Part shown: one piece after another, positions 1-64,000 of the stretch | Layout of the letters: every line of letters begins with the position of its first letter | Position numbering within the stretch: position 1 is the stretch's first letter | Origin: a candidate division WOR-3 bacterium | Lineage (GTDB): Bacteria > Hydrothermota > Hydrothermia > LBFQ01 | Direction: 5' to 3' | Assembly: GCA_039802605.1 (NCBI GenBank) | Contig: JBDRWW010000003.1 | Coordinates: 86,444 to 150,443 of the forward strand | Length of the DNA: 64,000 nucleotides | Made by a program: the position numbers and the translations under genes | Notes under the pieces: generated by a model | The model's database searches: none | What the model saw: the letters and a program-made list of their open reading frames with translations, nothing else | What the model was told of the DNA's origin: nothing

Positions 1-1216
1 TCAAACTCCTCATAAGTAATGTCCTGGAAAAGTAATCCCCGGGAAAGAGCATAAATTCCCTACGCATGACATAGTCGTATGTTCTATTGTTTTGCGAAAA
101 ATCTATGAACCTGACCCTAACCCTCCAATTTTCCGTAATGTTAAAGTTATAACTCATCTTATCGCCTTCTTTTTTCTCTTCGAATCTTAGGTTTGCGTAT
201 ATATATCCCGAATCCGCGTACAACCCCAAAACCTCCCCCCTTGCCATTTCAAACTTTTCCTTTGAATATAACCCCCTTTCTAAGGCCTGGGGGGCCCTAT
301 ACCAAAACCCATACTTCAACCAATCAAATATACTCGGTTTTTTAAAAACTATACTTTTAAACCTCTCTTCTAGGGTTTTGCTATCAAAAACCTCATTCCC
401 CTCAAAGGACACATCTCCAAATTTATACTTTTTGCCCTCTGTTACATAAACAACTATACCCATATAACCGTTTTCTAAGGGATATACGGAAAAGGAATCA
501 ACCTTTGCCTCCGGGTATCCGTGATTGTGATAAAACTCTTCAACCCTTCTTATATCCTCTTCCCATTTATCGTCGTTAAACACATACCAACTCGTCAATC
601 TCAAGTACCACTTGTATTCTTTTGTGTGAAGGATTTTTTTTAATGTCGCGGATGAATACGCATTGTTTCCCTTAAAGTCTATAAAGCCTACCTTGAATTT
701 TTCGCCTTCATATACCTTGAAAATTATAACCGTCTCCCCGTTTTTGTCCGGCTCCTTTATCTCGTAATCAACCCTTGCGTTAAGGTATCCCTTTTTCTTA
801 TAGATGTTTTCAATGGTTTTTTTCATCGCAAAAATGTTTTTCTCTGTGGCGGCTTTGTTCTTAAAAACCTTATTCAAAGTGTCAATTAAAGATTTACTTT
901 TAACATTTTTTGCGCCCTGTATCTCAAACTTTTTTATCCTAGGAGCCTCTTTAAAAACGAAGAGCATATCAATGGTATCCTTACGGAGCATACCGAGGAC
1001 CTTTATATCGTCAAATATGCCCAGATTCCAAACCCTATCAAGGGCCTGCTTGAAATCCATGGCTGTTAATCTTTGTCCCCTTTGTAGCCTCAAAGCGCTC
1101 CTTATAACCTGATGGTTTGTCCATTTAACATCCAAAATCTGTATTTCCCCTATATAAACCTCCTTTGGTATGGGTTTTGCGGTATCGACTTGCAAAACTA
1201 AAATACCTAAGAGCAT
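1..1216 (-). CDS. bamA: Outer membrane protein assembly factor BamA, N-terminal POTRA region (runs off the window edge)
   Basis: Manual translation from ATG 1216: MLLGILVLQVDTAKPIPKEVYIGEIQIL...ALDRVWNLGIFDDIKV...KEAPRIKKFEIQG...YKKKGYLNARV...IYEGEKFKVGFIDFKGNNA...YHNHGYPEAKV...VTEGKKYKFGDVSFEGN. These are repeated POTRA signatures. Confidence 0.9.
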   Translation of the reverse strand, partial: MLLGILVLQVDTAKPIPKEVYIGEIQILDVKWTNHQVIRSALRLQRGQRLTAMDFKQALDRVWNLGIFDDIKVLGMLRKDTIDMLFVFKEAPRIKKFEIQGAKNVKSKSLIDTLNKVFKNKAATEKNIFAMKKTIENIYKKKGYLNARVDYEIKEPDKNGETVIIFKVYEGEKFKVGFIDFKGNNAYSSATLKKILHTKEYKWYLRLTSWYVFNDDKWEEDIRRVEEFYHNHGYPEAKVDSFSVYPLENGYMGIVVYVTEGKKYKFGDVSFEGNEVFDSKTLEERFKSIVFKKPSIFDWLKYGFWYRAPQALERGLYSKEKFEMARGEVLGLYADSGYIYANLRFEEKKEGDKMSYNFNITENWRVRVRFIDFSQNNRTYDYVMRREFMLFPGDYFSRTLLMRSL

Positions 1217-1280
1217 AAGCGGTTATTTTATTGCCGTTTTGTTTTTAGTTAGTACCTTTCCACTTTAAAATATCCGCGCT

Positions 1281-1520
1281 ATGAAAATTACAAAAGAGAC
1301 AACGGTGGAAGAGGTAGTTGTAAGGTATCCGGATGCCGTTGATATATTTTTCAAATACGGGATTCCCGCCATAGCGTGCGGGACACCTATATGGGGCACC
1401 ATAGGGGAAAATGCGGAAAGGTATGGGGTGAAGGATTTAGGTGGTTTGTTAAGGGAGCTGAACGAATTGGTGGAAAAGAAAGGGGAGATGGATATTAAAC
1501 TCAACCCTATAAACGAATAA
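1281..1520 (+). CDS. DUF1858 domain protein (hybrid-cluster-associated redox disulfide-like)
   Basis: KITKETTVEEVVVRYPDAVDIFFKYGIPAIACG...TIGENAERYG pattern. Confidence 0.75.
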   Translation: MKITKETTVEEVVVRYPDAVDIFFKYGIPAIACGTPIWGTIGENAERYGVKDLGGLLRELNELVEKKGEMDIKLNPINE

Positions 1521-1547
1521 AACAAGCTTATAATATCCGCTTCATAA

Positions 1548-1621
1548 GGGCGCGTAGCTCAGGTGGTTAGAGCGCTCGTTTGACATGCGAGAGGTCGGAG
1601 GTTCGACTCCTCCCGCGCCCA
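1548..1621 (+). tRNA. tRNA-Val(GAC), CCA not encoded
   Basis: Acceptor stem GGGCGCG/CGCGCCC, anticodon arm CTCGT-TTGACAT-GCGAG, T-loop TTCGACT; TATAAT at 1529-1534. Confidence 0.95.
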
Positions 1622-1622
1622 T

Positions 1623-5405: not shown

Positions 5406-5792
5406 ATGTTATTAGCGTTTATACTATCGCAAAACCAAGATACCTTAGAGGATACATTAAAGCGTAAGGATATCTTTATAAAATCACCCGTTAAAGCCGC
5501 TTTGAGGTCGGCGGTTATTCCGGGATGGGGGCAGTTTTACAACGGTAGAGCATTTAAAGGCCTAATACTTGGAGGGTTTTCCTTTGTATCCCTCGGTTGG
5601 ACATTGAAAACTTTTAACGATTACAGGATGAAGGGGGATAATCAAAGCGTATCCAAATTTTTGGGGGCTTTGATAGTTAATATAGCGGTTTGGGGTTATA
5701 CTATTGCCGACGCGTTCGTTGATGCGTATTTATACGGATTTGAGGCCGAGAGGGATACGGTTTTAAAGGATATAGAGGTTAAAAAGCATTAG
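5406..5792 (+). CDS. DUF5683-like membrane protein
   Basis: KSPVKAALRSAVIPGWGQFYN...DAFVDAYL. Confidence 0.75.
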   Translation: MLLAFILSQNQDTLEDTLKRKDIFIKSPVKAALRSAVIPGWGQFYNGRAFKGLILGGFSFVSLGWTLKTFNDYRMKGDNQSVSKFLGALIVNIAVWGYTIADAFVDAYLYGFEAERDTVLKDIEVKKH

Positions 5793-12738: not shown

Positions 12739-15222
12739 ATGAGTTGGATGACCATATATTCGCAGGGTTTTGAGGGAGGTTTTCCCGTTGATTGGTATAT
12801 TGGAAACGGTGGTAGCACCATTACATGGGAAGTTGTAATTTATGGTTCAAACCCCTTTGAACCCCCCGGATTCGGAGATTATTACGCAATATGCAATGCC
12901 AATTCCGGCATTTATCCCTTCTTTGATACCCTTTTTTCTCCAAAGGTTTATACTTCCGGTTCGTACGATAGTTTAAAGATTGAATACAATTACGCCTTTA
13001 AGAAATACGGTTCAACGGACCTTGGAAAGGTAATACTCAGATACTTTGATGGCACATCTTGGTCCCCTTGGATTGATGAAAAAATCTACACATCTACCCA
13101 AAAAGGAAAAGATAGTATAAAACTTCCCCCTTACGATAGCATCCAGGTGGCTTTTGTTTATATAAGCAATGAATGGTCTTTCTGGTTTTCTTTGGATGAC
13201 TTTTCCGTTAAAGGCGGTAAAACTTACGATTACGATATATCCGCCCTTGGCATCGTAGAACCCCAAAATAGGGGGATATACTTTAAGGGTAATATAATAT
13301 ACCCTTGGGTTGTCATAAGAAACCTCGGTTTAAACGATGTTGGTACTTGGATTATTTTAAAGTTTTACTTGGGTTCGGATTTAGTTTACGCCGACTCAAC
13401 ATATACCATATCTTATTCGGGAAATACGGACACCCTGAGTATGGGAATGTATTATGCGGATACGGTTGGAGAATTCAGGGCGGTTTTGAGGGTCAATCCA
13501 TTAATGGACAGTTTGGACGAAAACGATTCCCTTTCAATCACATTTAAAGTTATGCCAAGGCCCGTAAAGGATATAACCGTTCGCTTTTCCAATAATGCGC
13601 CTTTAATTGATGGTAATTTTAGTACCTACGAATGGGCGGATGCAATAAGCGTTGATATATCAAATTATGCGGGTAAGGGTTCATCCCCAACGGACACCGC
13701 CACATCAAAGGCTTATGTAAAGCACGACGGGAGTTTTGTTTATATGGCGATTCAAACCCCGGATACGATATACAACCCCTTGGATGTTTTAAACATAGTT
13801 ATTAACGATAATGCGAATTCCTCTTGGGATAACGGGGAGGGCGAAAACGCCTTATACCCCTCGCCGGGGATGTGGTGGGCCACGAGGAGGATATACGGTT
13901 CTTCCTTTGGGAATTGGATATATCCTAGGAGGGATAGGAACACATTCTTTGCTTATGGCAGGGGTATCGTTGAGGTTAAAATACCCTTTGGTTTGGTTGA
14001 TTTGAAAGGAGATCCTTCCCACATAAAAACCTTCGTGGGTGGGACATTTTACTTGGGTATGTATTACATGGATGGTAGAAATGGGGGGATTTTGGCCTGG
14101 TGGCCCCAGGATGTTGATACAAACCTGTATTACAATGCCGGAGGCCTTTATAAATCCCACATAACCCTTGAAAGGCCTTCCGGTTGGAGGGATTTGGGAA
14201 TTGCCGGTTTATTAAGTCCTAAAACCGTGGAAACGGGTTATAGCTGTGAGGTTTCCCATCCCTGCGATATAAGGTTTGTAATATACGACAACAATTCGGA
14301 AATCATACGGCCTTGCACCGTTGGGGTTAAAATCCTTGAATATCCAACCCTAAACCTTATATACTCTTGGGATACGACAATAACGCTTTACTCCTTGGCG
14401 TACGATACGCTCGGCTTTACATGGAATCCATATTCTTCGGGTTATTACAAGGTTATAATAGAATTGTCGGATGACCAATCCCGGAAAAACAACTATTACG
14501 AGGTAATTTTTGGGGTTTCAAGGGTTTTTCTCGCCCCTTATGTTGAAAACTTTGAGGGGGAGTTTTTCTTACCCCTTGGGTGGAATAGGGAAGGGGATGG
14601 ATGGGTTTTGGGAAACAACTTTTTGAACCCCAACATTGCCCCCGCTTATGGCGTTTCCGGATATAAATTTGCGGAATTTACAACATACACCACTTTATCG
14701 GGGGATTCATCCGTATTAATATCACCGAAGATAATATCTCCTCCTGATGCCGTTTTAACATTTTGGTGGTGGAACGGCCCCACATTTTCCGGAAGGGGAA
14801 ATTACGATGTATTAAAGGTTTATTACAAAACGCAGTCAACACCTTGGACACTTTTGGCCTGGTTTTATGGAGATGTTTATAATTGGAGAAACCAAATTGT
14901 ACCATTACCCGTTTTGGCCGGTGATACCATTCAGTTGAAGTTTGTGGCAATAAGCGATTATGGGGATACGGATATTTCCTTGGACGATATAGGGGTTATT
15001 AGAAATCCGCTATATGTTTCGGAAAGCGGCAAGAATTTGCAAGGATTTAAGGTTTTTAAAGGGGGCGTAATGCTTCATAAGGGCGAATATTACGAAATAT
15101 ACGATGCAAGGGGTAGGGTTGTATTTAGGGGTTTTGTGGAAAATGATAGGGTTTTAAGGTTGGCGAAAGGGGCTTATTTTGTAAAGGTTAGAGGGGGGAT
15201 TTTTAAGGTTCTGATCGGATAA
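12739..15222 (+). CDS. Large extracellular beta-rich protein (MAM/adhesin-like, CARDB and sugar-binding-like domains) with T9SS-type C-terminal domain
   Basis: FEGGFP..W and ENFEG..LP.GW, LDD strands, PLIDG...EW; C-terminus EIYDARGRVV...LAKGAYFVKV...KVLIG. Confidence 0.65.
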   Translation: MSWMTIYSQGFEGGFPVDWYIGNGGSTITWEVVIYGSNPFEPPGFGDYYAICNANSGIYPFFDTLFSPKVYTSGSYDSLKIEYNYAFKKYGSTDLGKVILRYFDGTSWSPWIDEKIYTSTQKGKDSIKLPPYDSIQVAFVYISNEWSFWFSLDDFSVKGGKTYDYDISALGIVEPQNRGIYFKGNIIYPWVVIRNLGLNDVGTWIILKFYLGSDLVYADSTYTISYSGNTDTLSMGMYYADTVGEFRAVLRVNPLMDSLDENDSLSITFKVMPRPVKDITVRFSNNAPLIDGNFSTYEWADAISVDISNYAGKGSSPTDTATSKAYVKHDGSFVYMAIQTPDTIYNPLDVLNIVINDNANSSWDNGEGENALYPSPGMWWATRRIYGSSFGNWIYPRRDRNTFFAYGRGIVEVKIPFGLVDLKGDPSHIKTFVGGTFYLGMYYMDGRNGGILAWWPQDVDTNLYYNAGGLYKSHITLERPSGWRDLGIAGLLSPKTVETGYSCEVSHPCDIRFVIYDNNSEIIRPCTVGVKILEYPTLNLIYSWDTTITLYSLAYDTLGFTWNPYSSGYYKVIIELSDDQSRKNNYYEVIFGVSRVFLAPYVENFEGEFFLPLGWNREGDGWVLGNNFLNPNIAPAYGVSGYKFAEFTTYTTLSGDSSVLISPKIISPPDAVLTFWWWNGPTFSGRGNYDVLKVYYKTQSTPWTLLAWFYGDVYNWRNQIVPLPVLAGDTIQLKFVAISDYGDTDISLDDIGVIRNPLYVSESGKNLQGFKVFKGGVMLHKGEYYEIYDARGRVVFRGFVENDRVLRLAKGAYFVKVRGGIFKVLIG

Positions 15223-15328: not shown

Positions 15329-16498
15329 TTATTTCCATTCCGCAACGAATATGTTAAACTCCCTGCGGTTTTTTGCACCCCTGTTTGATGTCCATACGAC
15401 CTTCTTTCCGTCTTTGCTGAACATTGGGAATGCATTAAACCCCTCTGAAAATGTTATCCTTTCAAGGTTTCTACCGTCAACATCAACTTTATAAAGCTCA
15501 AAACTAAAACTCCCGGGCTTGTGTAAGTTTGATGAGAAAATTATAAACTTTTCGGATGGGTGGAAATATGGGGCAAAGTTTGAAACGCCCTTTGGGGAAT
15601 GCGTTAGTTGGGTAAATTTTTTCGTTTTCGTATCGTATAAAAACAGTTCAACATCTTGGGGTTTTACGAGGTCCTTGGAGAGTAATTCTTTAAATTCCTT
15701 TATTTCCGAAGTATCCTTTAAGTGGCGCGCCCTAAATACGATATACCTACCCGAAGGGCTAAACATGGCTCCCCCATCGTATCCCGGAAAATCCGTAATC
15801 CTTTGTATTTCCCTTGTCCTTATGTTTATCGTGTATAACTCCAAGTCCCCATCCTTTGAGGATGTAAAAACAACAACATCCCCGTAATTCCCTTCACCCT
15901 CGGCATCGTATCCATTTGATGAGAACAGCGGATATATGCTATCCCTTTTCAAGTCGTAAATGTAAAGGTCGTAATTAAACAGCCTCCAAACATAGACCCC
16001 TTTCCTCAAATATTCATTTGCATATGGATTTGTAGGGCATTCCAAACCTTGGGAAAATGTACTTGAAAACAGTACGGAATCCGGACTTATAAACCAACCG
16101 CATGTATTTGCACCACCCGGAGAAATCCTCTTTATCGGAAAACCGAATGTATCCATAACAAAAATCTGATCGCACTCAAACCTCCCTTTAACAAAGGAAT
16201 TGAAATACAAGCCTTTAAAATCCGCCGTGTCGTATATTTCGGGGATAAAGAACATCCAACCTTCCGAATGTTTTACTTTAAAGTATTTTAGTTTTTTGGA
16301 TTTTATGAGACTTTCAAGTTTCCTCGGTTCTTTTGTTAAAAGATATACCCCACCTTCTCCCTTTGTTTGAAAAACGATCCTTTCCCCATCGGGTGAGAAA
16401 TATGCTTCGGCGTTTTCCCCGACAAAGGTCAGTTGTTTTATATTCTTCAAAAACCTTTCCTCGCCTTTAAATAGCAATTGGGATACTATGAGAACCAT
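15329..16498 (-). CDS. TolB-like PD40 beta-propeller protein
   Basis: ENAEAYFSPDG, GYDAE, GYDGGAMFSPSG, NFAPYFHP, FPMFSKDGKK. Confidence 0.85.
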   Translation of the reverse strand: MVLIVSQLLFKGEERFLKNIKQLTFVGENAEAYFSPDGERIVFQTKGEGGVYLLTKEPRKLESLIKSKKLKYFKVKHSEGWMFFIPEIYDTADFKGLYFNSFVKGRFECDQIFVMDTFGFPIKRISPGGANTCGWFISPDSVLFSSTFSQGLECPTNPYANEYLRKGVYVWRLFNYDLYIYDLKRDSIYPLFSSNGYDAEGEGNYGDVVVFTSSKDGDLELYTINIRTREIQRITDFPGYDGGAMFSPSGRYIVFRARHLKDTSEIKEFKELLSKDLVKPQDVELFLYDTKTKKFTQLTHSPKGVSNFAPYFHPSEKFIIFSSNLHKPGSFSFELYKVDVDGRNLERITFSEGFNAFPMFSKDGKKVVWTSNRGAKNRREFNIFVAEWK

Positions 16499-20281: not shown

Positions 20282-21757
20282 TCACCATATCACAAAATTC
20301 CCCTTTGGATAGGTAATAACTATCTTCCTTTTAACCGTAAAACTTTCCCCGGGTTTTAAATTTACCTTCCACATTAGAAGGCCATCACCCAAGTCCTTTT
20401 CCGGTTCGGGTTCAACGCCAAAATCAACAACATTGACATTTCCCAAAGAGAAGGGTTTTCTAACGAACAGGGTTATTTCTACACTTTCCTTTCTATTATT
20501 GGTTATGGTGATTTGGTGTATCCGCTCCTCACGGGTTAAAACCGTCTTGTTTTTACCCCAAATATCCGTCCTCTTCTGTTCCAAAAGTTTTACATCTCCG
20601 GTTATAAACGGGTCAAAACCCAAGAATAGGGTATCCTCTTCATCCCTTTGCGTTCCTTTGTAAAAGTAATCTGCCGAAAGTTCCCCGTTAAAGAAAACTT
20701 TTATATTACCTCCTGGCAAATCCATATCGGGTTTAAAAACAACGCTAATATAAGCCCTCTCGGACAATTCGGGATATATAAAAGCCAACTCCTTAACCTT
20801 ATATGTTTTCTCAAACAATTCCGCAATTGCCGGCTTTAACCTGTCAAAAGTTATCTCTTTGTCTATAACAAACCTCGTTGAAATTGGTGTAAATGTTATT
20901 TCTGGGGTTTCGGGAATTCCTTTTACCGCTTCCGCTGCCATGCGCTCCGCCGATAATGTAGTCCTTTTCTCATAAACCATAGGCGGCCTGTCGGTTATGT
21001 ACCAGGGGGTATGTGATGGTGCGAAGAAAGAAGGGGGAATGTTGGTTATTATAACCCTTTTTGCCGATACTTTTCTAGGCAATTCTGATATAAACCTTGC
21101 CAAAGCGGAAATTCTCATATTTCCCCCACTTTTATACTCAACCGTATATTCCGGTTCCCAACCAAGGTTTCCCGAAGGATAAAATATAACTAATTCAACC
21201 GTTGGATCGTTCGCCTTTTCAATGTAAAGGGTTATAATTCCCTGTTCGGTTAGTAATCTCTGCTTTAAACCGTTTAAACTGTCAAGTTTTGCGTCTAAAT
21301 CCTTTAAAACTTTTAAGAGGGAATCCCTTCTTATATGATAATCCGGAAGTCGTCCTGAAAGGTGTAAATATTCATTTATGTTGTCCCCCTTTCCGTTCTT
21401 TATCCCGTCCAAAAAGGCGTTTAAAAGGTTTATGTAATACTCCACCTCCGAAAGCTTTGCCTTTACATACGATGAAGTTTTCTCCAAGGTACTAATCTTT
21501 TTTTCTAAATCTTTATAGGTTTCCGAATCATAGGGTAATTTTTGCGTTTCAAATCCCATATTTGCCAAGATACCGTTATGAATACCTATCTTTACATTTT
21601 CGCCCACGGGTGTTGGGAGTTTTGATACTTTTACATCCAAAGACCCTTCTGCCTTTAATTTTATTTTAGCAAACAATAACGCCCCATTTGGAGAAATAAC
21701 TGCGGAATCCACGGTTTGCGGGAAATCCAAAGAAATTGCACTTATGAGTATAAACAT
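20282..21757 (-). CDS. DUF4140/DUF4139 domain exported protein
   Basis: Coiled coil, GWEPEY, DLPGG, LFLGFDP, GLLMWKVNLKPGE; start set at ATG 21757, 7 nt after TAAAAT. Confidence 0.75.
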   Translation of the reverse strand: MFILISAISLDFPQTVDSAVISPNGALLFAKIKLKAEGSLDVKVSKLPTPVGENVKIGIHNGILANMGFETQKLPYDSETYKDLEKKISTLEKTSSYVKAKLSEVEYYINLLNAFLDGIKNGKGDNINEYLHLSGRLPDYHIRRDSLLKVLKDLDAKLDSLNGLKQRLLTEQGIITLYIEKANDPTVELVIFYPSGNLGWEPEYTVEYKSGGNMRISALARFISELPRKVSAKRVIITNIPPSFFAPSHTPWYITDRPPMVYEKRTTLSAERMAAEAVKGIPETPEITFTPISTRFVIDKEITFDRLKPAIAELFEKTYKVKELAFIYPELSERAYISVVFKPDMDLPGGNIKVFFNGELSADYFYKGTQRDEEDTLFLGFDPFITGDVKLLEQKRTDIWGKNKTVLTREERIHQITITNNRKESVEITLFVRKPFSLGNVNVVDFGVEPEPEKDLGDGLLMWKVNLKPGESFTVKRKIVITYPKGNFVIW

Positions 21758-37824: not shown

Positions 37825-38334
37825 ATGGGAATATTCGTTATACTCCTTATAAGCCAAGGAAAAGGGGAAACTATAAAGAACGCCTATGGCCTTTTTGGAA
37901 GTGGGTACTACGGGTATCCTATGGGGAGTTATGCGGCGGGTGGTGGGGGAATGGTAGCCATAGGAAACTGGTTTGAACCCTTAGCCTTCTTGGTCACCGC
38001 GCATGGTATATATTCCCCGGACAGTTCCATAGGGGCGGCCATTGATTTTTCCATAAGGGGGGCTATACTGGGACAGAGGAAGTTCAGGCAAACAAACGGG
38101 AATTTTGCATATTTATCCTTTGGCTTGGGTGTTTTCGCCTTACCGGGCACTTTTGTTGAAGGGCTTAACTTCTCCAAGGTAAAACCCGATATAATTTTGG
38201 GTTTGGGGTTTGAGTGGGCTTTAAGCCCGGAAATATCCATATTGGGTCAGGTTAGATATGATGTTTTGAGTGTAATAACTTACAAGGAAAATGTTGCAAC
38301 GGGCCAGTTGGGATTTTTGATATATGGTAGATAA
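37825..38334 (+). CDS. Small outer-membrane beta-barrel-like protein
   Basis: Gly/aromatic alternating strands, AYLSFGLG, LGLGFEW, GQVRY, GQLGFLIY. Confidence 0.55.
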   Translation: MGIFVILLISQGKGETIKNAYGLFGSGYYGYPMGSYAAGGGGMVAIGNWFEPLAFLVTAHGIYSPDSSIGAAIDFSIRGAILGQRKFRQTNGNFAYLSFGLGVFALPGTFVEGLNFSKVKPDIILGLGFEWALSPEISILGQVRYDVLSVITYKENVATGQLGFLIYGR

Positions 38335-39694: not shown

Positions 39695-40623
39695 GGAAGT
39701 TCTTGGACTTTATATTTTTGGCAAGGCCGACGCTGATTTTGCCGGGTTGGGGGTTTTTTCTGTTGGGATACCTTCATTCTTTAAACCTAATGGAGGACTT
39801 AAAACCGGCCATTTTTATACCTTTAAATTCAAAGTTTTGGATGGGTTTTTTATCCGCAACATTAATAAGCGCTTACATATATGTTATAAACCAGATGTTT
39901 GATGTGGAAAGCGACAGAAAGAATTCCAAGTTGTTTATACTCCCAAAGGGCTATATATCCATACCGGAGGCAAAGATATATTCCGTAATCCTACTTTTGG
40001 GTTCCCTTATTTCCGGTTTTCCCGTGGGAATAAATTATTTAATCCTTTTACTTTTCGGCTTTTTGATAGGCACATTGTACTCTCTACCCCCTTTTAGGTT
40101 TAAGGGTAGGCCCTTTTTGGATATGTTTTCAAACGCCGTTGGGTATTCCCTTCTCAATCTTGGGGCTGGAATAGTTGCCGGAGGTGGGGATTTTATGCAA
40201 ATCTTGAAAACTTTCCCACCCTATTTTTTTGCCGTTTGTGCCTTATACCTAAACACAACAATACCGGATATTCCTGGTGATAAATCGGAAAATTTAATAA
40301 CCACAGGGGTATTCTTGGGGGAGTTTAAAACTTCCGTATTGGCATCGTTTATGGTTTTAATAACTCTAATGCTTTCCCGGGATAACACCTTTATGTTCTG
40401 GGTTTCGTTGGTCTCCTTACCGTTTTATGTATTATCCGCGTTAAAAAAGGGAGAGGAGTTCTACGCAAAGGTTTCGTATAGGATTTCCGGATTGGCATTC
40501 ACACTGCTGCTAATAATAAAGTATCCCCTTTTCCTCATTCCATCCATAATAACGCTCTTATCCCTAAGGCTTTATTACGGTTTGAGGTTTGGGATAAAGT
40601 ACCCGTCCCTCCTTGGGAGATGA
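39691..40623 (+). CDS. UbiA family prenyltransferase
   Basis: NQMFDVESD, YSLPPFRFK, DIPGD; multi-TM. Confidence 0.85.
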   Translation: MRKFLDFIFLARPTLILPGWGFFLLGYLHSLNLMEDLKPAIFIPLNSKFWMGFLSATLISAYIYVINQMFDVESDRKNSKLFILPKGYISIPEAKIYSVILLLGSLISGFPVGINYLILLLFGFLIGTLYSLPPFRFKGRPFLDMFSNAVGYSLLNLGAGIVAGGGDFMQILKTFPPYFFAVCALYLNTTIPDIPGDKSENLITTGVFLGEFKTSVLASFMVLITLMLSRDNTFMFWVSLVSLPFYVLSALKKGEEFYAKVSYRISGLAFTLLLIIKYPLFLIPSIITLLSLRLYYGLRFGIKYPSLLGR

Positions 40624-41549
40624 ATATTGCTTTATCCTTTATATTCTCCCAATACGAGATTTCCGTTATTGATACCCTAACGAATATGCTTTATAACGAA
40701 AGGTTTGATGAATTTGAGAATTCTTTAAAAAGGTTTTATGGTGAGGTGGATACAAACATCTTACGATGTATAAAGTTGGGTTTTTTGGAGTTGTATATGA
40801 CGGACAACTCTACGGATTACAGATATGGGGAATTCGTAGCCCTAATGGATACATTGGTGAATCTCCCGCAAAATAACACCCGAAACAAACTTTATGTGGC
40901 CGTATCCTCCGCAATAGGTGCGGTTTTTTACGGTAGGAGGGGAGATATAACCAAAGCCATATCACTTGGGAATATATCGTTTAGTCTTTTCAGCGAGATA
41001 TACTCCGAAAATCCGGATGTTTATGATTCGTATTTGCCTCTGGGCATTTACCATTTTGCAATGGGATATCTCAGTAGGTCTTCTTCAAGGAAGAAAAGGG
41101 GAATTGAAATGGTAAAAGAGTCCGCAAAAAGGGGGGTATTGGTAAAACCCCTAGCCTATGCGGCCCTAGTTTATATTTATGTTTTTGATAAAAAGCCCGG
41201 TTATGCCGTGGATTACGGGATTAAGGCCCTGGAATTGTATCCCAAAAGCAGAACTTTCAGGTGGATATTGGCATATGCTTATAAAGAGGCCGGTATGTAT
41301 AAGGATGCCATAAGGGTATATATGGAAATTTTAATGGATTTAAATAGGAGAAACCCAAACTGTAATGTGTGCTTGGCGGAGGTATATTTCCATTTGGGGG
41401 AGAGTTATAAGGCTTTGGGAGATGATGAAAAGGCGAAAAAGAGTTTTTGGTCGTCATACTACTATGCAAGTTCCGAGGAAGATCCTTACAGACGGAGAAA
41501 GGTAAAGGAGATTTTAAGAAAACTCGCCAAGTATGGGATCGGAGGCTAA
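40620..41549 (+). CDS. Tetratricopeptide repeat protein, probably exported
   Basis: KALELYP, LAYAYKEAGMYKDA, LGESYKALGDDEKA. Confidence 0.7.
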   Translation: MNIALSFIFSQYEISVIDTLTNMLYNERFDEFENSLKRFYGEVDTNILRCIKLGFLELYMTDNSTDYRYGEFVALMDTLVNLPQNNTRNKLYVAVSSAIGAVFYGRRGDITKAISLGNISFSLFSEIYSENPDVYDSYLPLGIYHFAMGYLSRSSSRKKRGIEMVKESAKRGVLVKPLAYAALVYIYVFDKKPGYAVDYGIKALELYPKSRTFRWILAYAYKEAGMYKDAIRVYMEILMDLNRRNPNCNVCLAEVYFHLGESYKALGDDEKAKKSFWSSYYYASSEEDPYRRRKVKEILRKLAKYGIGG

Positions 41550-43753: not shown

Positions 43754-46522
43754 TTATTTTACGATGAAGCGGTTTATAGTTGTCCTGTTCCCCGCCTTTA
43801 CCCTAACCATATAAGCACCCTTACTCAGATCGGACAGGTCAAACCGCAGGTTCCCATAATAATAACCCTTATATAGATTCTTAACCAACCTTCCGGATGG
43901 TGAGAATATTTCAACGCTAACATCGGATTTATAAGGTATATTCACTATTAGCTCAACACCATTGTCTTTGCGGGAAATGCTCAAACTCGGGGGAATTACA
44001 TCTTTAAATGTTTCGGATATATCCGTTGAGGCGTCAAACCCCACTATGGCGAATGTTACGACTTGTGAACCCCCGGAAGGTATGTTGAAAGGTCCGGCGG
44101 AAGCAACAACCGACCAGTCATTGGCCGAAGAACCGGATGGGAACGAAAGTGTCCCGTTCAAGAACTTCCACTTTATTGTATCGGGTGTTCCGGAATATAC
44201 ATATATTGAGTTGTCTATGGCGCTCAGGTTTGCCAAGGATGAAACGGGATCAACAAGGGCAACACCCGCACGGTAAGGATAGGAGGAATGATATATATAT
44301 GCCAGTTTCAAAGATGTGTCTGTTGCTGCATAGTTTTGGTTATATGTGCTTACATCAAAGTCGGCAAATACACCTATATACACATTGTTCAGAGGTGAAG
44401 TTGAGCGGTTTACCAACTCGTACCTCAGGAATACCCAGTTCGGCCTGTAAGACCGGTATCCGTACGCCTCAAGCCTTAGTTCAACGCCAAAAGGTGTTGA
44501 ATGCCCCGAATCGTCATACCCAGCGGCACCGTTTTCATCCCCAAACATAGGTGTTGATCTAATAAATCCACCGTAATATCTTGATATATCTCCCCCGTCA
44601 TACCAGCCATCCGGGACATATGTCTGGGAATTTCCAAAGGCCACGCCGGCGTAATACAATAGATTTGCCCCCGTCTTGGGATATTTGAACCCTTTTGCGG
44701 TTGTCGTATCCCCGTAATGGGTTCCTATTCCACCGGGCTGGTTTACGGGTATCCATAGGGCCGCCGTACCGGTATCTATTACGAATACATCAACCGGGTT
44801 TCCTATGGTCAGCGTGAAGTTTAGTGTATCGTTATAACCACCGCTATTTGCGGATACATACATGTCAAACCTCACGGATAAACCAATTGGCGCACTCGGG
44901 GACACGCTTATTGTGAATACATCCGATGTGTTGGTCGCGGAATCGGAAGGCGCGATATTACCGTATACCGCGGAGTTATCAATTATCGTTATATACGGGT
45001 TTGAGGTGTATATGGTTGCCTGCGTATTGTTCGCCGCACCACCACCCGAATTTCTCAGCGTTATTATGAGGTTAACGGTTTCGCCGGGATCGGCTATGTT
45101 ATTGTTATTACCAGCCGCGTCATCAACAAACACCCTGGATAAGGCGATATAAGGTACGCTTGAAGAAGGGGTATTTTCAACCGCCCTTAGGGCATTTAAT
45201 CTACCCCAACCGCAGTTGTTGTTGGGTATTGAGTTGCAATCCGGAGCGGGTCTATCGGCATAATCCAAAAGTATGTTATACACCTGCGTAAAATCAAGCG
45301 TTGCGTTCTTCTGAAACATGAGGGCTATCGTTCCCGTAACATGCGGGGCCGCCATTGAAGTGCCGCTCATATTGGTGTAGGAGCTTGAACCATAAGAGGA
45401 ATACACATTTACACCTGGTGCGGATATGTTGGGTTTGTAAAAGTTCCAATCACTCCTTGGCCAATAAGATGTATTATTCCATGGGCTTGAGTTTGGTGCG
45501 GGACCCCTTGAAGAGAAGGAAGCAATACGGTCGCTATTATCCGTGGCGCCAACGCCTATAACGGTCGGGAAATTGCCCGGAGTACCGGCTGTCCCGGAAC
45601 CCGGACCGCTGTTTCCTATGGAAAATACGGGTATTATGTTGGCAGTCCTCCAAGCCAAAACATCGTTCCAGAAAGTCAAATCCGTTGTTGCGGTGCTACC
45701 CCAAGAGTTATTAACCGCCACAATATTTATACCGCTATCAACCTTCCAATCAACTATCCTCTGGAACCCATTCCTTATAATCGTCGTCGTCGTTGAACAG
45801 AAACTTCCTCCGAATATCCTAACCATGGCCAATCGTGCCCCGGGTGCAACACCTATATCGTTTGAAAACGATCCAAGACCATCACCGCCTACCATCGTTC
45901 CGGATGTGTGCGTGCCGTGATAGGAACAAGCCGATTCATCCGTAGGCGTTGAGGAACCACCATAGGGATCGTACCACTTTATAACCTTACCGTTTAGTGC
46001 CGGGTGCGAAGCCATAACGCCCGAGTCCATTGAAGCTATTATAACTCCCGTTCCGTCTATGCCATAGTAAGCCCATACGGAATCCGCCTTTATCTTATCA
46101 ACACCCCAGGCCACGGCGTCGGGCTTTATATCACCGCCATCCGATGGTTTTGCGAATAGATATATAACTTCCTCTTCGTAAATGTATGTTATGTCATTCC
46201 TTGCGGCCAGGGATCTTATCTGTTGAGGCGTTGCCTCTACGAATATCTCGTTGCTTATCCAAAATCCTTGGTAGTTGGTTATACCGAGCGACTTTATGTG
46301 TTCTATTACGGGTTCTTGTGTTCTTTTTGCTAAGTCTTTCACATATGTGAATATGCTTTTTAGTGTTTGGGTGTTGCGTTTGGGGTATTGCCTCATGAAT
46401 TCCTCGTAATCCGGTTGGTCTTTTAGCACGAGGAACACCCTGAACTTTTGCTCCGGAGGCGCTGAATTTAACTTCGCCTCCAACTCCGGCTGTAACTTCG
46501 CAAGTGATATTACCCAAAGCAT
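43754..46522 (-). CDS. Subtilisin-like S8 serine protease with propeptide and T9SS-type C-terminal domain
   Basis: Triad DSG, HGTH, GTSMAAPH; C-terminus IFSPSGRLVK...LSKGAYMVRV; start corrected to ATG 46522 from the promoter. Confidence 0.92.
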   Translation of the reverse strand: MLWVISLAKLQPELEAKLNSAPPEQKFRVFLVLKDQPDYEEFMRQYPKRNTQTLKSIFTYVKDLAKRTQEPVIEHIKSLGITNYQGFWISNEIFVEATPQQIRSLAARNDITYIYEEEVIYLFAKPSDGGDIKPDAVAWGVDKIKADSVWAYYGIDGTGVIIASMDSGVMASHPALNGKVIKWYDPYGGSSTPTDESACSYHGTHTSGTMVGGDGLGSFSNDIGVAPGARLAMVRIFGGSFCSTTTTIIRNGFQRIVDWKVDSGINIVAVNNSWGSTATTDLTFWNDVLAWRTANIIPVFSIGNSGPGSGTAGTPGNFPTVIGVGATDNSDRIASFSSRGPAPNSSPWNNTSYWPRSDWNFYKPNISAPGVNVYSSYGSSSYTNMSGTSMAAPHVTGTIALMFQKNATLDFTQVYNILLDYADRPAPDCNSIPNNNCGWGRLNALRAVENTPSSSVPYIALSRVFVDDAAGNNNNIADPGETVNLIITLRNSGGGAANNTQATIYTSNPYITIIDNSAVYGNIAPSDSATNTSDVFTISVSPSAPIGLSVRFDMYVSANSGGYNDTLNFTLTIGNPVDVFVIDTGTAALWIPVNQPGGIGTHYGDTTTAKGFKYPKTGANLLYYAGVAFGNSQTYVPDGWYDGGDISRYYGGFIRSTPMFGDENGAAGYDDSGHSTPFGVELRLEAYGYRSYRPNWVFLRYELVNRSTSPLNNVYIGVFADFDVSTYNQNYAATDTSLKLAYIYHSSYPYRAGVALVDPVSSLANLSAIDNSIYVYSGTPDTIKWKFLNGTLSFPSGSSANDWSVVASAGPFNIPSGGSQVVTFAIVGFDASTDISETFKDVIPPSLSISRKDNGVELIVNIPYKSDVSVEIFSPSGRLVKNLYKGYYYGNLRFDLSDLSKGAYMVRVKAGNRTTINRFIVK

Positions 46523-54808: not shown

Positions 54809-55633
54809 ATGAGAAACATTGTAATAACTTCTACCGTAATAGGGGTTATTTTAATTGCGTGTGGTCAAAGTATAGACTATACAAAGGCTAAGTTTGAGGA
54901 TATTTTCAGGCCTTATGAGGTTAAAAGTGGGTATATAAAATACAAGGTTTCTGGGGATGAAGAGGGGTACGAAGAGCTGTGGTGGGATGGATACGGACTT
55001 TATACGCACAAACATCGAAGTGTGGTAAACGTAAAATACGGAAATGTACCCGTAGAAGGCTGGGATATTTCAACCCCGGAATACATATACTCATACGGGC
55101 GGAGGTATGAAAAGAAGTTTATTAGGGAAAAATTAACATATGAATACACTCCCGATTCGATAGTAGGCTCAATGAGGCCAAACAACCTAATAATGATCTT
55201 GAAGAGCAAATGGGAGCGTATGACACCGGAACAAAGGAAAAAGTTGGGCCCGGCTATAAGTAAGTTTGCACGGGATTTGCAGTTGGGTATAGTTTATAAG
55301 GGGAAAATAACAAAACCCAACGAGTTATTTACAAAGAAGATAGCGGGTAGAAAGACGGATGTGTATAAGGTTAGGGGACAGGACATAAGGCTTTTCATAT
55401 GGAAAGGTATTCCTTTGGGTTGGGAGGTTGTAACCCAAGGGGGGTCATATACCCTAACCGAGGCCGAGGAGGTTAAAGAAAATATCAATGTTCCCGCCGA
55501 CAAATTCACCGCCTTACAGGGCCCAAAGGTTTTAACAAAGGTATATACCCAGGATTCCGTTGCGGTTCAACAGGAGAGGATATTGATAAACGAGTTGCTG
55601 AAAACTTACCTTCCTGAACTGTTTGAGGAATAA
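54809..55633 (+). CDS. Hypothetical lipoprotein
   Basis: Lipobox LIAC; KIAGRKT..Y and IWKGIPL. Confidence 0.65.
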   Translation: MRNIVITSTVIGVILIACGQSIDYTKAKFEDIFRPYEVKSGYIKYKVSGDEEGYEELWWDGYGLYTHKHRSVVNVKYGNVPVEGWDISTPEYIYSYGRRYEKKFIREKLTYEYTPDSIVGSMRPNNLIMILKSKWERMTPEQRKKLGPAISKFARDLQLGIVYKGKITKPNELFTKKIAGRKTDVYKVRGQDIRLFIWKGIPLGWEVVTQGGSYTLTEAEEVKENINVPADKFTALQGPKVLTKVYTQDSVAVQQERILINELLKTYLPELFEE

Positions 55634-60425: not shown

Positions 60426-60635
60426 ATGGCACATGTAGGAGTTAAGTTGCAGGAAGGGGAAAACTTTGACCAACTTTTGAGAAGGTTTAAAAAGGTTGTA
60501 GGTAGGGAAAACATACTAAACGAGTACAGGAAACATTTGGTTTATGAAAAGCCATCCGAGATTAGGAAGAAGCGCGAAGCCCAGAGGTTAAGGAAAATCC
60601 GTAGGAAACTCCAAAAGATGTTGGAGGAGGAGTAA
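60426..60635 (+). CDS. rpsU: 30S ribosomal protein bS21
   Basis: ENFDQLLRRFKK...YEKPSEIRKK. Confidence 0.92.
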   Translation: MAHVGVKLQEGENFDQLLRRFKKVVGRENILNEYRKHLVYEKPSEIRKKREAQRLRKIRRKLQKMLEEE

Positions 60636-61003
60636 TGCGGAGTGGAAGGGTTTGGTTTTTACATATGATGGCCGGGGCGGTATTGTTTATACTTTTAACG
60701 GGACATATAGCCCTAATGCACTTTTCACCCGGCACGGCAGCACCCTGGTACAGCCCCGAAAACCCTTTGAGTTGGCAAAACGTTTTGGCGAGGACAAAGG
60801 ATCTGTTTAACGCTATAATATACACACTTTTTATAGGTTTTGGCCTTTTTCACGGTTTTTACGGCCTTTTTGGGGTTTTAGCCGAAACCAACACCCTAAG
60901 GCCTTATAGGAGGTTAATAGGGGGGTTCCTTTTGGTTTTTGGGATTTTACTCTTCCTTTACGGAACCATTACCACATGGTATGCCTTCTTCTATCTCAAA
61001 TAA
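60635..61003 (+). CDS. Succinate dehydrogenase/fumarate reductase membrane anchor (SdhD-like)
   Basis: WFLHMMAG, H...MH, FHGFYGL; 3 TM helices. Confidence 0.75.
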   Translation: MRSGRVWFLHMMAGAVLFILLTGHIALMHFSPGTAAPWYSPENPLSWQNVLARTKDLFNAIIYTLFIGFGLFHGFYGLFGVLAETNTLRPYRRLIGGFLLVFGILLFLYGTITTWYAFFYLK

Positions 61004-61516: not shown

Positions 61517-63131
61517 GTTTTACCTTTCTCCAAAAAACGAAAAATGTCAATACCAAAAGCCCTAAGGTTATAATAGTTGTCCAATTTGGCGCCTCCGGAA
61601 ACTTCCAACCCAAAAAACCTATTCCAATAGCAAACAAAACGCTAACTATTCCGTCTCCCGCTATAATTCCCGAAGGTAAAATGTTTTCACCTTCCCCCCT
61701 CATCAACTTGGAAATTATGCCCCCCAGCAACAAACCACCCGACAGGTGTAATGGTAAATACAAACCAACCGCAAAGGGTAAAACCGGAACCCCAAGCATA
61801 TATGCGGCCAAGGCTATCATGCCGCCTATGTTTATCAAATTCCAATCTATTGAACCCTCAAAAATACCCTGAGTAATCGTACCTATTAGGACACCCTGAG
61901 GGGATGGCAACTTTTCGCTCCCAAAACCGTATATGCTCCCCAATAACGAGATAACCCATGTAATTAGCGCAAAGGAAACGGCTATACCTATGAATTCCCC
62001 TATGAACTGATATTTTGGTGTTGCACCCACGATATAACCCGTTTTTAAATCCTGAATTATATCGCCCGCTATTGAGGCGGCCGAGGCTACAAAACTCGCA
62101 AAGGCCAAAACCGAAACTATGCTGTTAAGCCCCAAGAGTTTAAAGATTAGGGCTACTATAACCAAGGATGCTATTGTCATACCGGATATTGGATTTGAGG
62201 ATGAACCCACTATTGCCGTTGTGCTTGCGGACACATAAGCAAAAATTACACCGAATAAAGAACCCAATACTCCACCCATTAATCCGAGTTCGGGTATTAT
62301 TAAACCCGCCAATGCCCCCAAAACCACACCGGCAAGCAGCACGATGAAAGTCCTCAAATTCCTTAAATGCGAGTATATTTTAAAGATTACCTTAATAAAC
62401 TCAATGATACCCCCCACCAAAACGGCCCCGGCACCTATAAACCTTATATACTTACTCCAAATTTCCAATGATTCTCCGTTGAAGAAAGGCATCAAGGCCC
62501 ACCAACCCATAACACCACCCGCGGCCACCATAAGGGATGTCCTAAAACCTATTATAGCGCCGGCACCCACAACCGCGGGAGAAAGCTCAAGTGCAAGGGG
62601 TTTGTTAAAAATACTTGAAAAGTACGAAGAAGCCAATAACCCCAAAGATTGTAATACCCTTATTAATCCACCCGATAATGCCCCCGCTATAACCAATTTC
62701 CCGCCCTCTATTTCCCTACTCTTTAAAACAACCGCACAGGCTCTCCCTTCGGGAAAGGGCAAACTTTCATCTTCAACGAGTTCCCTTCTGAAAACCATAC
62801 CGGCCAATATCCCCACACCTCCACCTATTAAAACCAAAAACCCTATGCTATAAGGGTGAAAACCCAAAGATAGTATAAAAAAAGGGGGTAAAGTAAATGA
62901 CAAAGCCGCCGCCAAGGATTCACCGGCCGATGCAATGGTCTGAACTATGTTTGCTTCTAGGATTGTACCCCTTTTGTAAAACATCGAAAATATTGCCAAG
63001 GCGCCAACCGCCGCGGGTATTGACGCGGATACGGTCATTCCAGCCTTCAAGGCCAAATAGGCGTTTGATACGCCAAAAAGGATGCTCAAAAAGGCACCGA
63101 TTATTACGGCGTTTGGAGAAAATTCCCTCAC
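61506..63131 (-). CDS. OPT family oligopeptide transporter
   Basis: YLALKAGMTVSASIP, NIVQT, LPFPEG, GSSSNPISGMTI, QDLKTGYIVGATP. Confidence 0.92.
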   Translation of the reverse strand: MREFSPNAVIIGAFLSILFGVSNAYLALKAGMTVSASIPAAVGALAIFSMFYKRGTILEANIVQTIASAGESLAAALSFTLPPFFILSLGFHPYSIGFLVLIGGGVGILAGMVFRRELVEDESLPFPEGRACAVVLKSREIEGGKLVIAGALSGGLIRVLQSLGLLASSYFSSIFNKPLALELSPAVVGAGAIIGFRTSLMVAAGGVMGWWALMPFFNGESLEIWSKYIRFIGAGAVLVGGIIEFIKVIFKIYSHLRNLRTFIVLLAGVVLGALAGLIIPELGLMGGVLGSLFGVIFAYVSASTTAIVGSSSNPISGMTIASLVIVALIFKLLGLNSIVSVLAFASFVASAASIAGDIIQDLKTGYIVGATPKYQFIGEFIGIAVSFALITWVISLLGSIYGFGSEKLPSPQGVLIGTITQGIFEGSIDWNLINIGGMIALAAYMLGVPVLPFAVGLYLPLHLSGGLLLGGIISKLMRGEGENILPSGIIAGDGIVSVLFAIGIGFLGWKFPEAPNWTTIITLGLLVLTFFVFWRKVKPKR

Positions 63132-63766
63132 TTTTTGAGAGGTTTTATAATATAAACCAATTCCCCCGTTTTGGATTTTATACCTTTATCCTTTATCCTG
63201 AGCCTTTCCAAGGTATAACCGAGATTTTTTAGGTATTTCTTTACGTAATTCACCTCTTCTACCATAATAGGGGCATCGTATACGATTTCATCTTTGCCCT
63301 GCTGTTTCATTATTTGTAGCAATGCCTTAGCCTTGTTTATAGCCCTTCCTATCCTCCTCCTCCTGTAATGCGCTATATCAAAATTAACCCTTATCGTGGG
63401 CTTTCTCTTATTCACTATGGCCTTTAATATGTAGTTTAGTTCCCGGAGTATCCTACCCCTGTTCCCTATCAGGGTGCTATCCAGTTCCTGTATGTTAAAA
63501 TTCACATAATATCTGCCCTCTTCGTCTATGTCTATATCCACGCTTCCCTTTACCCCAAGGCGGTGTAAAAATTCCCTCGCTATCTCATCCAAAATATCAA
63601 AATCTTCGGTATCAAGGAATATCCTAACCTTTGCCTTTTGGCTGCCCGGGGGCAACCTAAGAACCTTATACCTTATTTCGGAAATATCTTTGGCGTTTTC
63701 TTTGAGGAATTTTTCCAAGGCCTCTTCAACACTATTACCCTCTACATCCACATAACGGGCTCTCAT
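63128..63766 (-). CDS. jag: Jag/KhpB (EloR)-like RNA-binding protein
   Basis: Jag_N EGNSVEEAL; KH LIGNRGRILREL; DIAHYRRRR. Confidence 0.75.
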   Translation of the reverse strand: MRARYVDVEGNSVEEALEKFLKENAKDISEIRYKVLRLPPGSQKAKVRIFLDTEDFDILDEIAREFLHRLGVKGSVDIDIDEEGRYYVNFNIQELDSTLIGNRGRILRELNYILKAIVNKRKPTIRVNFDIAHYRRRRIGRAINKAKALLQIMKQQGKDEIVYDAPIMVEEVNYVKKYLKNLGYTLERLRIKDKGIKSKTGELVYIIKPLKK

Positions 63767-63820
63767 TGGTGGGAATAATAAGGCTGAAAAGTTTGATGTT
63801 GAGGGGTGTTCTGATACCCC

Positions 63821-63848
63821 TTGACAAAAAACTTTTTAACCTTAAAAT
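63821..63848 (+). promoter_or_regulatory. Sigma70 promoter
   Basis: TTGACA, 16 nt, TAAAAT, 9 nt, ATG 63858. Confidence 0.8.
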
Positions 63849-63857
63849 ACTTTTCTT

Positions 63858-64000
63858 ATGGCAATGGTAGCATTAATAACATCCTTGCCGCTGGGAGGCA
63901 TAACCCCAAAGCCCGACAAAAGGGCTGGGGAGATATACGAGGAAGGTATAAGTATGCTCTTCACACAGAATGTAGGGCAAATACCAAACCACGAGGTAGT
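63858..64000 (+). CDS. Start of a probable exported protein (FxxNxGQ motif seen at the N-terminus of SBBP-repeat proteins); truncated by the window
   Basis: MAMVALITSLPLGGITPKPDKRAGEIYEEGISMLFTQNVGQIPNHEV. Confidence 0.55.
   Translation, partial: MAMVALITSLPLGGITPKPDKRAGEIYEEGISMLFTQNVGQIPNHEV

Follow-up and report, generated by a model that had tools for sequence, protein, structure and literature searches.

The 64-kb window analysed here (the whole stretch of DNA, 64,000 nucleotides) stems from a candidate division WOR-3 bacterium of the class Hydrothermia, a hot-spring organism, and encodes a series of proteins which begin with Met and a very short, mostly uncharged, hydrophobic run. These short hydrophobic N-termini are best explained as true translation starts acting as stripped-down Sec signal peptides of the type cleaved by type I signal peptidase (SPase I), a reading to which the sequence evidence lends a probability of roughly 0.6. 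The trait appears to be lineage-wide in the Caldipriscus-like order of the class Hydrothermia (phylum WOR-3). An original prediction, made from the window alone, held that this lineage exports proteins by means of minimal signal peptides, and this is supported by starts that are bounded by stop codons and promoter-like boxes, by carriers of envelope type, and by an orthologue series with Ala or Ser followed by Gln at the leader junction, from which export and cleavage of the ultrashort leaders can be predicted. An unexpected companion finding, possibly of greater importance than the short leaders, is a missing signal recognition particle (SRP) pathway.

Twelve short N-termini in the window

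The twelve N-termini of the original prediction and three control proteins were re-read from the DNA, and all fifteen translations agree with it. As had been stated, seven of the twelve end at Ser or Leu followed by Gln, and Lys occurs only in the leader of the 28482 protein. Pfam matches back the labels given to BamA (four POTRA stretches) and to the DUF5683, PD40 (TolB-like), DUF4139, Poly_export (Wza-like) and TPR proteins, as well as to the Peptidase_S8 protein with the C-terminal tail of the type IX secretion system (T9SS). The rhodanese label of the 60976 protein is marginal, its Pfam score of 22.0 bits falling just short of the cut-off of 22.2. No Pfam family was found for the proteins at 28482 and 37825, which had been called outer membrane proteins, or for the 827-amino-acid (aa) protein at 12739, where the T9SS tail (PF18962) was also searched for and not found, so that its earlier description as T9SS cargo is not upheld. 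The N-termini and their start signals, with distances in nucleotides (nt), are as follows.

1193..1216, minus strand: BamA N-terminus, MLLGILVL then Q, with the first POTRA directly after; in-frame stop 2 codons upstream
1225..1230, minus strand: -10-like box TAAAAT, 8 nt before the BamA ATG, at the genome-wide positional peak
5406..5429, plus strand: DUF5683 protein (Pfam), MLLAFILS then Q; TAAAAT at 5390-5395; stop 8 codons upstream
12739..12762, plus strand: 827-aa protein, MSWMTIYS then Q; TAGAAT at 12726-12731; stop 1 codon upstream
16481..16498, minus strand: PD40/TolB-like protein, MVLIVS then Q; TAGAAT at 16507-16512; stop 2 codons upstream
21728..21757, minus strand: DUF4139 protein (Pfam), MFILISAISL then D; TAAAAT at 21765-21770
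28482..28514, plus strand: 279-aa protein without a Pfam family, AAGGAGG followed by a TTG start, M-K-MITVLLAGS then N; stop 5 codons upstream
29318..29344, plus strand: Poly_export (Wza-like) protein (Pfam), TTG start, MIGIWLSYI then D; domain from residue 11
37825..37854, plus strand: 169-aa Gly/Tyr-rich protein without a Pfam family, MGIFVILLIS then Q; TATAAT at 37812-37817
40620..40649, plus strand: TPR protein (Pfam), MNIALSFIFS then Q; ATG overlaps the stop codon of the preceding gene
46499..46522, minus strand: subtilase with T9SS C-terminal domain, MLWVISLA then K; TAGAAT at 46533-46538 and TTGACA 17 nt further up
60976..60996, plus strand: rhodanese-like 111-aa protein, MVCLLLS then Q; without a start signal, the weakest of the twelve
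63858..63887, plus strand: open reading frame (ORF) running past the window end, MAMVALITSL then PLGG; TAAAAT at 63843-63848, TTGACA upstream; stop 4 codons upstream
24341..24391, plus strand: control, 5'-nucleotidase with the conventional signal MKRLGFLILAGILPLYA then D; also preceded by TAGAAT, at 24326-24331
26090..26140, plus strand: control, lipoprotein (periplasmic binding protein), MKRGIFMFSALLFMAGC; TATAAT at 26074-26079
54809..54862, plus strand: control, lipoprotein-like, MRNIVITSTVIGVILIAC, read from the translation

The first 28 nt of the rhodanese-like gene (60976-61311) are shared with the 3' end of an ORF of 122 aa (60635-61003). For six of the twelve genes an in-frame stop lies between 1 and 8 codons upstream, which makes a longer N-terminus impossible there under genetic code table 11, and for the remaining six the stop is found 18-46 codons upstream. 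A TAnAAT box precedes the ATG by 7-10 nt in eight of the twelve, accompanied in the 46522 and 63858 genes by TTGACA 16-17 nt further upstream of the box. A Shine-Dalgarno (SD)-like site is combined with a TTG start in two genes (28482 and 29318), and the two remaining genes (40620 and 60976) have neither type of signal.

Genome-wide extent, start signals and make-up

The genome analysed comprises 1.65 Mb in 23 contigs (41 % G+C; 90 % complete). Starts were taken as confident in 911 genes with box or SD support and a nearby upstream stop, and the ultrashort class was defined as proteins in which Met is followed by a run with no K, R, D, E, Q, N, H or P, the run ending at residue 6-13 with no transmembrane-like stretch behind it. 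This class comprises 107 of the 911 confident-start genes. This definition excludes the charged residues K, R, D and E up to the point where the run stops, so that a basic n-region is absent, and no Arg can precede the run as it would in a twin-arginine (Tat) signal.

The pattern is found at the N-terminal Met of 118/911 genes (13.0 %) versus 90/4426 internal Met residues (2.0 %), a 6.5-fold excess. Under a longest-ORF start rule, which is conservative since it favours long leaders, an uncharged hydrophobic run ending by residue 10 is encoded by 151/1549 genes (9.7 %), as against a baseline of 0/82 in two 50-kb stretches of Escherichia coli K-12, and signal-like runs end at a median of residue 11 here versus residue 20 in the E. 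coli stretches. That such N-termini are a product of chance or composition, unrelated to export, is scarcely credible in view of these counts and of the carriers described below, among which envelope-type proteins outnumber cytoplasmic ones by 24 to 1 and 16 of 19 T9SS cargo proteins carry the pattern, even if a few cytoplasmic proteins do begin in this way, for example PurF (MCGIVGVIS) and a ferredoxin.

The box observed in the window recurs throughout the genome. In 451/1620 ORFs (28 %) the first start codon is preceded by TAnAAT at a spacing of 6-10 nt, within the consensus CCT-TAnAAT-ACCC, with 1-17 ORFs at each of the other spacings, and other genes show a separate SD-like peak at 6-9 nt. 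Among the 496 confident-start genes with the box, the spacer peaks at 8-9 nt and 390 start with ATG. The 107 ultrashort proteins are divided into 72 with a TAnAAT box and 35 with an SD-like site. The position of the box suggests the layout of leaderless or near-leaderless mRNAs, which may be widespread in this genome. Leaderless mRNAs with a -10 box just before the start codon are described in the accessible text of a study on Deinococcus deserti (PMC4007540). The arrangement here resembles these in that the box lies 6-10 nt before the start in 28 % of genes, most of which start with ATG, but differs in that the accessible text on D. deserti describes no tie to short export signals and that the layout is here known from sequence. 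Three raw-read hot-spring metatranscriptomes gave 4, 0 and 58 reads on window positions 11000-30999, mostly near 15257-15317, and show no transcript starts, the organism being nearly absent from them; a fourth run consists of contigs.

Under an alternative explanation the called starts are wrong, with normal signals arising through upstream non-canonical codons, stop recoding or frameshifting. The six window genes with upstream frames open for 18-46 codons leave room for such an explanation, as does a protein with a T9SS C-terminal domain on contig C4, which may start at a non-canonical codon: the frame upstream of position 111004 (minus strand) opens after a stop with IAFTLFRVYGGGG and over 66 codons lacks ATG, GTG and TTG alike. 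This explanation is nonetheless very improbable. An in-frame stop occurs within 4 codons upstream in 57/107 ultrashort genes, with all three kinds of stop represented at 1-4 codons, and within 10 codons in 83/107, while the distance from stop to run end is at most 12 codons in 43/107. Promoter-like boxes lie between those stops and the ATG, and the open upstream stretches hold no basic-plus-hydrophobic signal. Furthermore, assemblies obtained independently show these short starts too, and the lipoproteins are called normally by the same rules. Reassignment of a stop codon was rejected, with TAA, TAG and TGA all found just upstream of starts.

The lipoproteins form a separate class of 35 N-termini with a lipobox, in which K or R is present in the n-region of 31/35 and the Cys is mostly found at residue 13-21; three of the four without K or R have low-confidence starts. 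The lipobox Cys is not found in the ultrashort class. In approximately a dozen further proteins, counted by eye, the SPase I-type signal has its full form, MKR-h-P-L-(F/W/Y)-A followed by Gln. The occurrence of normal and ultrashort leaders in one genome under the same rules argues against an artefact of gene calling.

In composition, the ultrashort leaders are distinctive from the second residue. Position 2 is L, I or M in 79/107, and Trp occupies position 3 in 30/107 versus 17/804 of the other confident starts (1.3 % Trp proteome-wide). The run after Met has a mean length of 7.5 residues and a mean Kyte-Doolittle value of 2.5, compared to 11.7 residues in canonical signals of the same genome and to the approximately 7-15 residues usual for a Sec h-region, and part of this hydrophobic run would have to double as the c-region. 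The residue following the run is Q in 28 proteins, P in 21, D in 21, N in 12, E in 12, R in 6, K in 5 and H in 2, and net charge is -0.56 over the ten residues beyond the run, versus +0.03 per ten residues proteome-wide. Gln follows not only these 28 ultrashort runs, it also follows most canonical and orthologous leaders across the class, and can be considered, on this evidence, a habit resembling the Q-rule outside the Bacteroidota. The Q-rule, Gln at +1 of SPase I signals, is described for the Bacteroidota in the accessible text of PMC5837995. Under this rule the Gln is converted to pyroglutamate by a glutaminyl cyclase, and a search of the 90 % complete genome for such cyclases, confined to the plant type (PF05096), gave none. 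Growth temperatures estimated from IVYWREL content are too rough to be related to leader length.

Envelope carriers and orthologues in relatives

The T9SS C-terminal domain is encoded at 19 places in the genome and, with starts read by hand, sixteen of these proteins have ultrashort uncharged N-termini, two have long basic N-termini and one could not be resolved. On contigs C1-C3, which represent approximately half of the genome, 96 proteins beginning with Met and a hydrophobic run were compared against Pfam, and 55 match a family. When T9SS-tail matches are included, the 96 comprise 26 clear and 10 likely envelope or secreted proteins, 11 ambiguous, one inner-membrane and 10 cytoplasmic proteins, and 38 without a family. 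Nine of the ten cytoplasmic proteins have low-confidence starts, the start caller having sometimes chosen internal starts. The 55 ultrashort proteins with confident starts on these contigs include 17 clear and seven likely envelope or secreted proteins, nine ambiguous proteins, one cytoplasmic protein (a ferredoxin) and 21 familyless proteins; 24 of the 25 with a classifiable Pfam family are thus of envelope type. Peptidase_S8 (five proteins), SurA, LolA, OEP/TolC, Sod_Cu, PCuAC, DsbA-like, TlpA-like and PD40 families are represented among the carriers, along with Poly_export, NlpC/P60, SPOR, Amidase_2, CarbopepD_reg, BNR, FG-GAP and LVIVD. The carrier domains begin at residues 6-27, for example at residue 10 in PCuAC and AhpC-TSA, 12 in SurA_N and 13 in OEP. 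Judged by family, the predicted carriers of ultrashort leaders are the envelope proteome.

Orthologues of two of the carriers were followed through related genomes. BamA was matched in 118/121 genomes of the phylum, and 30 loci were surveyed. In the family and order of the window, its leader consists of 7-8 uncharged residues, as in MLLGILVL/Q, MVLLLIG/Q, MWLFLTA/Q, MLIIILG/Q and MLIILLS/E (a slash marks the leader junction), and all eight residues of the MLLGILVL of the window recur in a metagenome-assembled genome (MAG) whose BamA is 93 % identical. The leaders are 7-17 residues long in other families of the class and conventional in some distant ones (e.g. MKKFLIIILLFVSSLYS/Q), and approximately ten residues separate the junction from the first POTRA strand throughout. 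The BamA of Candidatus Caldipriscus sp. begins MLILIS/Q, with TAnAAT 8 nt upstream, and that of Ca. Hydrothermus pacificus begins MFKILLLIFIS/Q, with its ATG immediately after a stop codon. MAGs labelled Hydrothermia or Thermotogota fit this picture as well. Two Thermotogota-titled MAGs (loci L186-L188) encode BamA proteins 64-65 % identical to that of the window with the same ultrashort leaders, and in one of the Thermotogota-titled MAGs (L_MaxBin.031) there is a second BamA, 41 % identical, on another contig; the Thermotogota labels or bins of the L186-L188 MAGs may be wrong.

SurA was matched in all 31 genomes of the class, and 27 N-termini were examined, of which 24 were readable. Before the conserved D-K-V-V-A motif, the leader comprises 7-8 residues in families f1 and f2, nine in f4, 11 (with one Lys or Arg) in f5 and 15 in f8, and in families f3, f6 and f32-35 it reaches 16-22 residues of the MKK...A/Q type, beginning with MKK or MRR. 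Examples are MILMLLS/QLDTLDK in the genome of the window, MLLLLAV/Q in a relative of the same family, MTWMLALLS/Q in f4, and MIFLILFS/D in a relative of the same order, where the ATG is the first codon after a stop. With four exceptions (three S/D in f2 and one S/Y in f5), the last residue of each readable leader is small and the next residue is Gln. Such a graded series with a kept junction indicates that the leader has been shortened from the N-terminal side, and the orthologue series provides the best evidence at the sequence level that the junction is a putative processing site. LolA orthologues were matched in 9/46 genomes across the phylum, a sample without close relatives, and were not used.

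Under the longest-ORF rule, runs ending by residue 10 were found in 9/72 genes of genome G078 (f1), 11/102 of G112 (f2) and 3/58 of G032 (f4), and in 6/275 genes of four genomes from the rest of the class (G063, G026, G006 and G058 combined). Six genomes of other classes gave 0-9 % each, including G008 with 8/88 and G039 and G096 with none. This rule was preferred to a start-agnostic count, which was dropped in the relatives because of a 3-4 % background from Rossmann-type N-termini.

Sec machinery, missing SRP and proposed mechanism

The Sec components of this genome appear to be of the ordinary kind. There is one SecY of 443 aa, which aligns over its full length with the SecY proteins of Aquifex and E. 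coli. At what we take to be the pore-ring and prlA positions of E. coli SecY (I82, I86, I187, I191, I278, I408, F67, S282 and F286), it is identical to the E. coli protein except for Ala in place of I187, a change common to Aquifex. One SPase I (LepB) is encoded, with a single transmembrane anchor and an SSSM catalytic box. SecA (978 aa; contig C3, 24679-27615) and YidC (449 aa; contig C2, 68440-69789) are unremarkable, and a peptide deformylase is present. SecA ends without a Cys-rich zinc-finger tail, as judged by eye, and YidC lacks a long basic C-terminal tail, so that neither bears an SRP- or SecB-related extension of a known kind. The original prediction had also proposed modified recognition by SecA, SecY and SPase I; this is not supported by these sequences. 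Altered SecY or LepB as the cause of the short leaders was rejected, both being canonical in appearance.

The SRP pathway was not found. In the 90 % complete genome there is no match to the M domain of Ffh (PF02978), the GTPase domain shared by Ffh and FtsY (PF00448) gives only a 20.8-bit match on a KaiC/RadA-like ATPase, and neither the small nor the large SRP RNA (RF00169 and RF01854) was detected. The same models recover the Ffh M domain and the SRP GTPase domain in 14 of 14 model genomes, and the small and large SRP RNA in 12 and nine of these, respectively. A tblastn search of the genome with four WOR-3 Ffh proteins, all of full N-G-M architecture with M domains scoring 112-121 bits, gave a best E value of 0.098. 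PF02978 was found in none of the 31 genomes of the class, 26 of which are at least 90 % complete, and the five other genomes from the family and order of the window gave no PF00448 match. Among 71 genomes sampled across the phylum, 44 have strong PF00448 matches (at least two matches in 39 and a single strong match in five), on ORFs of approximately 290 aa (FtsY-sized) and 440 aa (Ffh-sized), and SRP RNA was detected in 43 of these 44. Neither PF00448 nor SRP RNA was found in the 13 sampled genomes of the class, apart from PF00448 matches of 27-28 bits in two f5 genomes, of which that in G048 proved to be an AAA_22 ATPase and was rejected as an SRP GTPase. Nine genomes of families f9, f21, f22 and f24 likewise gave neither. 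Most other WOR-3 families have all three SRP components. The joint lack of three unlinked genes in many high-quality assemblies is hard to explain by incompleteness, although a survey of sampled genomes cannot prove that they are absent.

Without SRP, the class may have been freed from a constraint on N-termini of high hydrophobicity. This lack cannot by itself account for the shortening. Ordinary leaders persist in the SRP-less families f3, f6 and f22. These observations also bear on the notion that a lineage-specific targeting route, by SecA acting on nascent chains or by another factor, reads a tag of Met, hydrophobic residues, Trp and further hydrophobic residues and replaces the logic of SRP and n-region, which would amount to a rewritten export code rather than a mere shortening of the signal. 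Such a route would be in keeping with the failure to find Ffh, FtsY and SRP RNA in the class, with the enrichment of Trp3, and with the sharp divide between lipoproteins and SPase I-type proteins. It is nevertheless doubtful: no candidate factor was found, although no systematic search was made, SecY, SecA, YidC and LepB are ordinary, and the leaders are only loosely tied to SRP, being ordinary in the three SRP-less families named and uncharged, with 11-13 residues, in the BamA of some SRP-positive genomes (MSSLFLALLLAT/Q, MIWILALFPYG/E and MLGLLLLFAFPYG/E).

According to the mechanism proposed for the preferred reading, in which minimal leaders serve the standard Sec route, ordinary signals of 16-22 residues would have been cut back N-terminally, with the cleavage junction and the mature protein unmoved, the basic n-region lost and the h-region pared to approximately 5-9 residues. 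A typical leader reads M-(L/I/M)-(W/L)-(I/L/V)-(I/L), often with a small residue at its end and Gln, Asp, Glu or Asn next, or with a short P-x-x-small c-region behind it. Transcription would start at the ATG or 1-3 nt before it. The leader would enter the lateral gate of SecY as a very short hairpin, for which a free or formylated N-terminus, the interfacial Trp3 and the acidic early mature region may serve as orientation cues instead of Lys or Arg. LepB would bind the last leader residues in an extended form, and cut after the small residue or the short P-x-x-small stretch. The lipoproteins likely keep full basic signals because membrane anchoring is needed for Lgt and LspA, and the usual limits may have been loosened both by growth at high temperature and by the lack of SRP. 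That the class Hydrothermia truly lost its SRP, and that the Caldipriscus-like order reduced the Sec signal to an uncharged tag of 6-10 residues handled by ordinary SecYEG, SecA and LepB, can be regarded as an even wager.

Several points weigh against reading the ultrashort N-termini as SPase I-type Sec signals. To our knowledge, no bacterial signal known to work is as short as an h-region of 5-9 residues lacking a basic n-region, as judged by limits of the von Heijne type, and standard Sec recognition therefore remains an assumption. The -1 residue at the naive boundary is S, A, T or G in only 45/107 (L in 21 and I in 14), and Pro directly follows the run in 21/107. Pro is not accepted at +1 by SPase I, so that any cut by this enzyme must lie further on in these proteins; many of the predicted signals are probably 11-15 rather than 6-10 residues long. 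The -35 element is weak, with TTGACA matched at five or more of six positions in 28/496 box genes versus six in a control window, and the gene samples of the relatives are thin, at 46-102 genes each. Finally, the uncharged 11-13-residue leaders of SRP-positive families loosen the link between SRP and leader.

The boundary residues and the Pro counts also favour an explanation in which the N-termini direct export but are left uncut by SPase I at the junction, the tag either remaining on the mature protein, where it could serve as an interfacial anchor, or being removed at another site or by a different protease. A peptide of this size would presumably be too short for a bilayer-spanning helix. 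This explanation is possible but unlikely, as the junction of a small residue and Gln is kept in orthologues while leader length varies, the leader is carried by the soluble periplasmic proteins SodC, LolA, SurA and PCuAC, and one ordinary LepB is present.

If the leaders are indeed minimal Sec signals, they share with classical Sec/SPase I signals an N-terminal position on envelope and secreted proteins, a hydrophobic core and often a small residue at the junction, but differ in the lack of a basic n-region, in being hydrophobic from residue 2 with Trp3 favoured, and in size, with a run of 5-9 residues and a total of approximately 7-15 versus 18-25. In the shortest eukaryotic signal peptides of von Heijne's surveys, the n-region may be the initiator Met alone, which is unformylated, followed by an h-region of at least seven and a c-region of 5-6 residues, giving a total of approximately 13 or more, and SRP is used. 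The leaders described here are similar in that the n-region is Met, with orientation presumably derived from the N-terminus and the flanking charges, but they occur in a bacterial host in which SRP was not found. Suppressor mutations of the prlA type in E. coli SecY allow the export of proteins with defective or missing signals, and need a mutated SecY. As in prlA strains, Sec would move proteins with minimal signals, but the SecY of this genome keeps the residues that were checked, bar the change shared with Aquifex.

SRP is described as conserved in all organisms in the accessible text of PMC7844537, in which, as in 10.1101/2021.01.06.425660, E. coli suppressor strains are described as living without it, and according to the accessible text of PMC8546722 its loss is tolerated by Streptococcus mutans with YidC2. 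In these accounts the SRP-less cells are laboratory deletions in species that keep SRP, whereas the lack here concerns natural genomes of a whole class, and the sole YidC has no long basic C-terminal tail. Neither ultrashort bacterial Sec signals nor natural SRP-less free-living bacteria were found in the literature searched, which excluded subscription journals and supplements. In the accessible text of four WOR-3 papers (PMC4791363, PMC11696919, PMC12285271 and PMC12542636) signal peptides are not mentioned, and the same applies to SRP, ffh and ftsY in that of PMC4791363, PMC12285271 and PMC12542636. Strain sy37, a thermophile isolated from WOR-3, has been brought into culture, and its EM3 lineage represents a class within WOR-3, according to the accessible text of PMC12285271.

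Predictions of the secretome and envelope of these lineages are probably badly incomplete, given that more than 100 putatively exported proteins per 1.65-Mb genome would carry leaders lacking the features on which standard predictors were trained. The leaders would constitute a natural experiment on the minimal information that Sec needs, in terms of the role of the n-region and the length of the h-region, and would sharpen the contrast with lipoproteins. If true, the co-absence of Ffh, FtsY and SRP RNA would be a natural exception to the universality of SRP and would make SRP-free targeting of membrane proteins testable in nature, and two textbook rules, SRP universality and the tripartite, basic-headed bacterial signal peptide, would fail together. 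Very short, heat-proof secretion tags would also have practical use.

A minor observation concerns the interval between the 827-aa and PD40 genes of the window, where RNA reads and contigs from several runs heap on positions 15257-15317. This interval is probably a transfer RNA gene, and the loose ends of the reads resemble transfer RNA.

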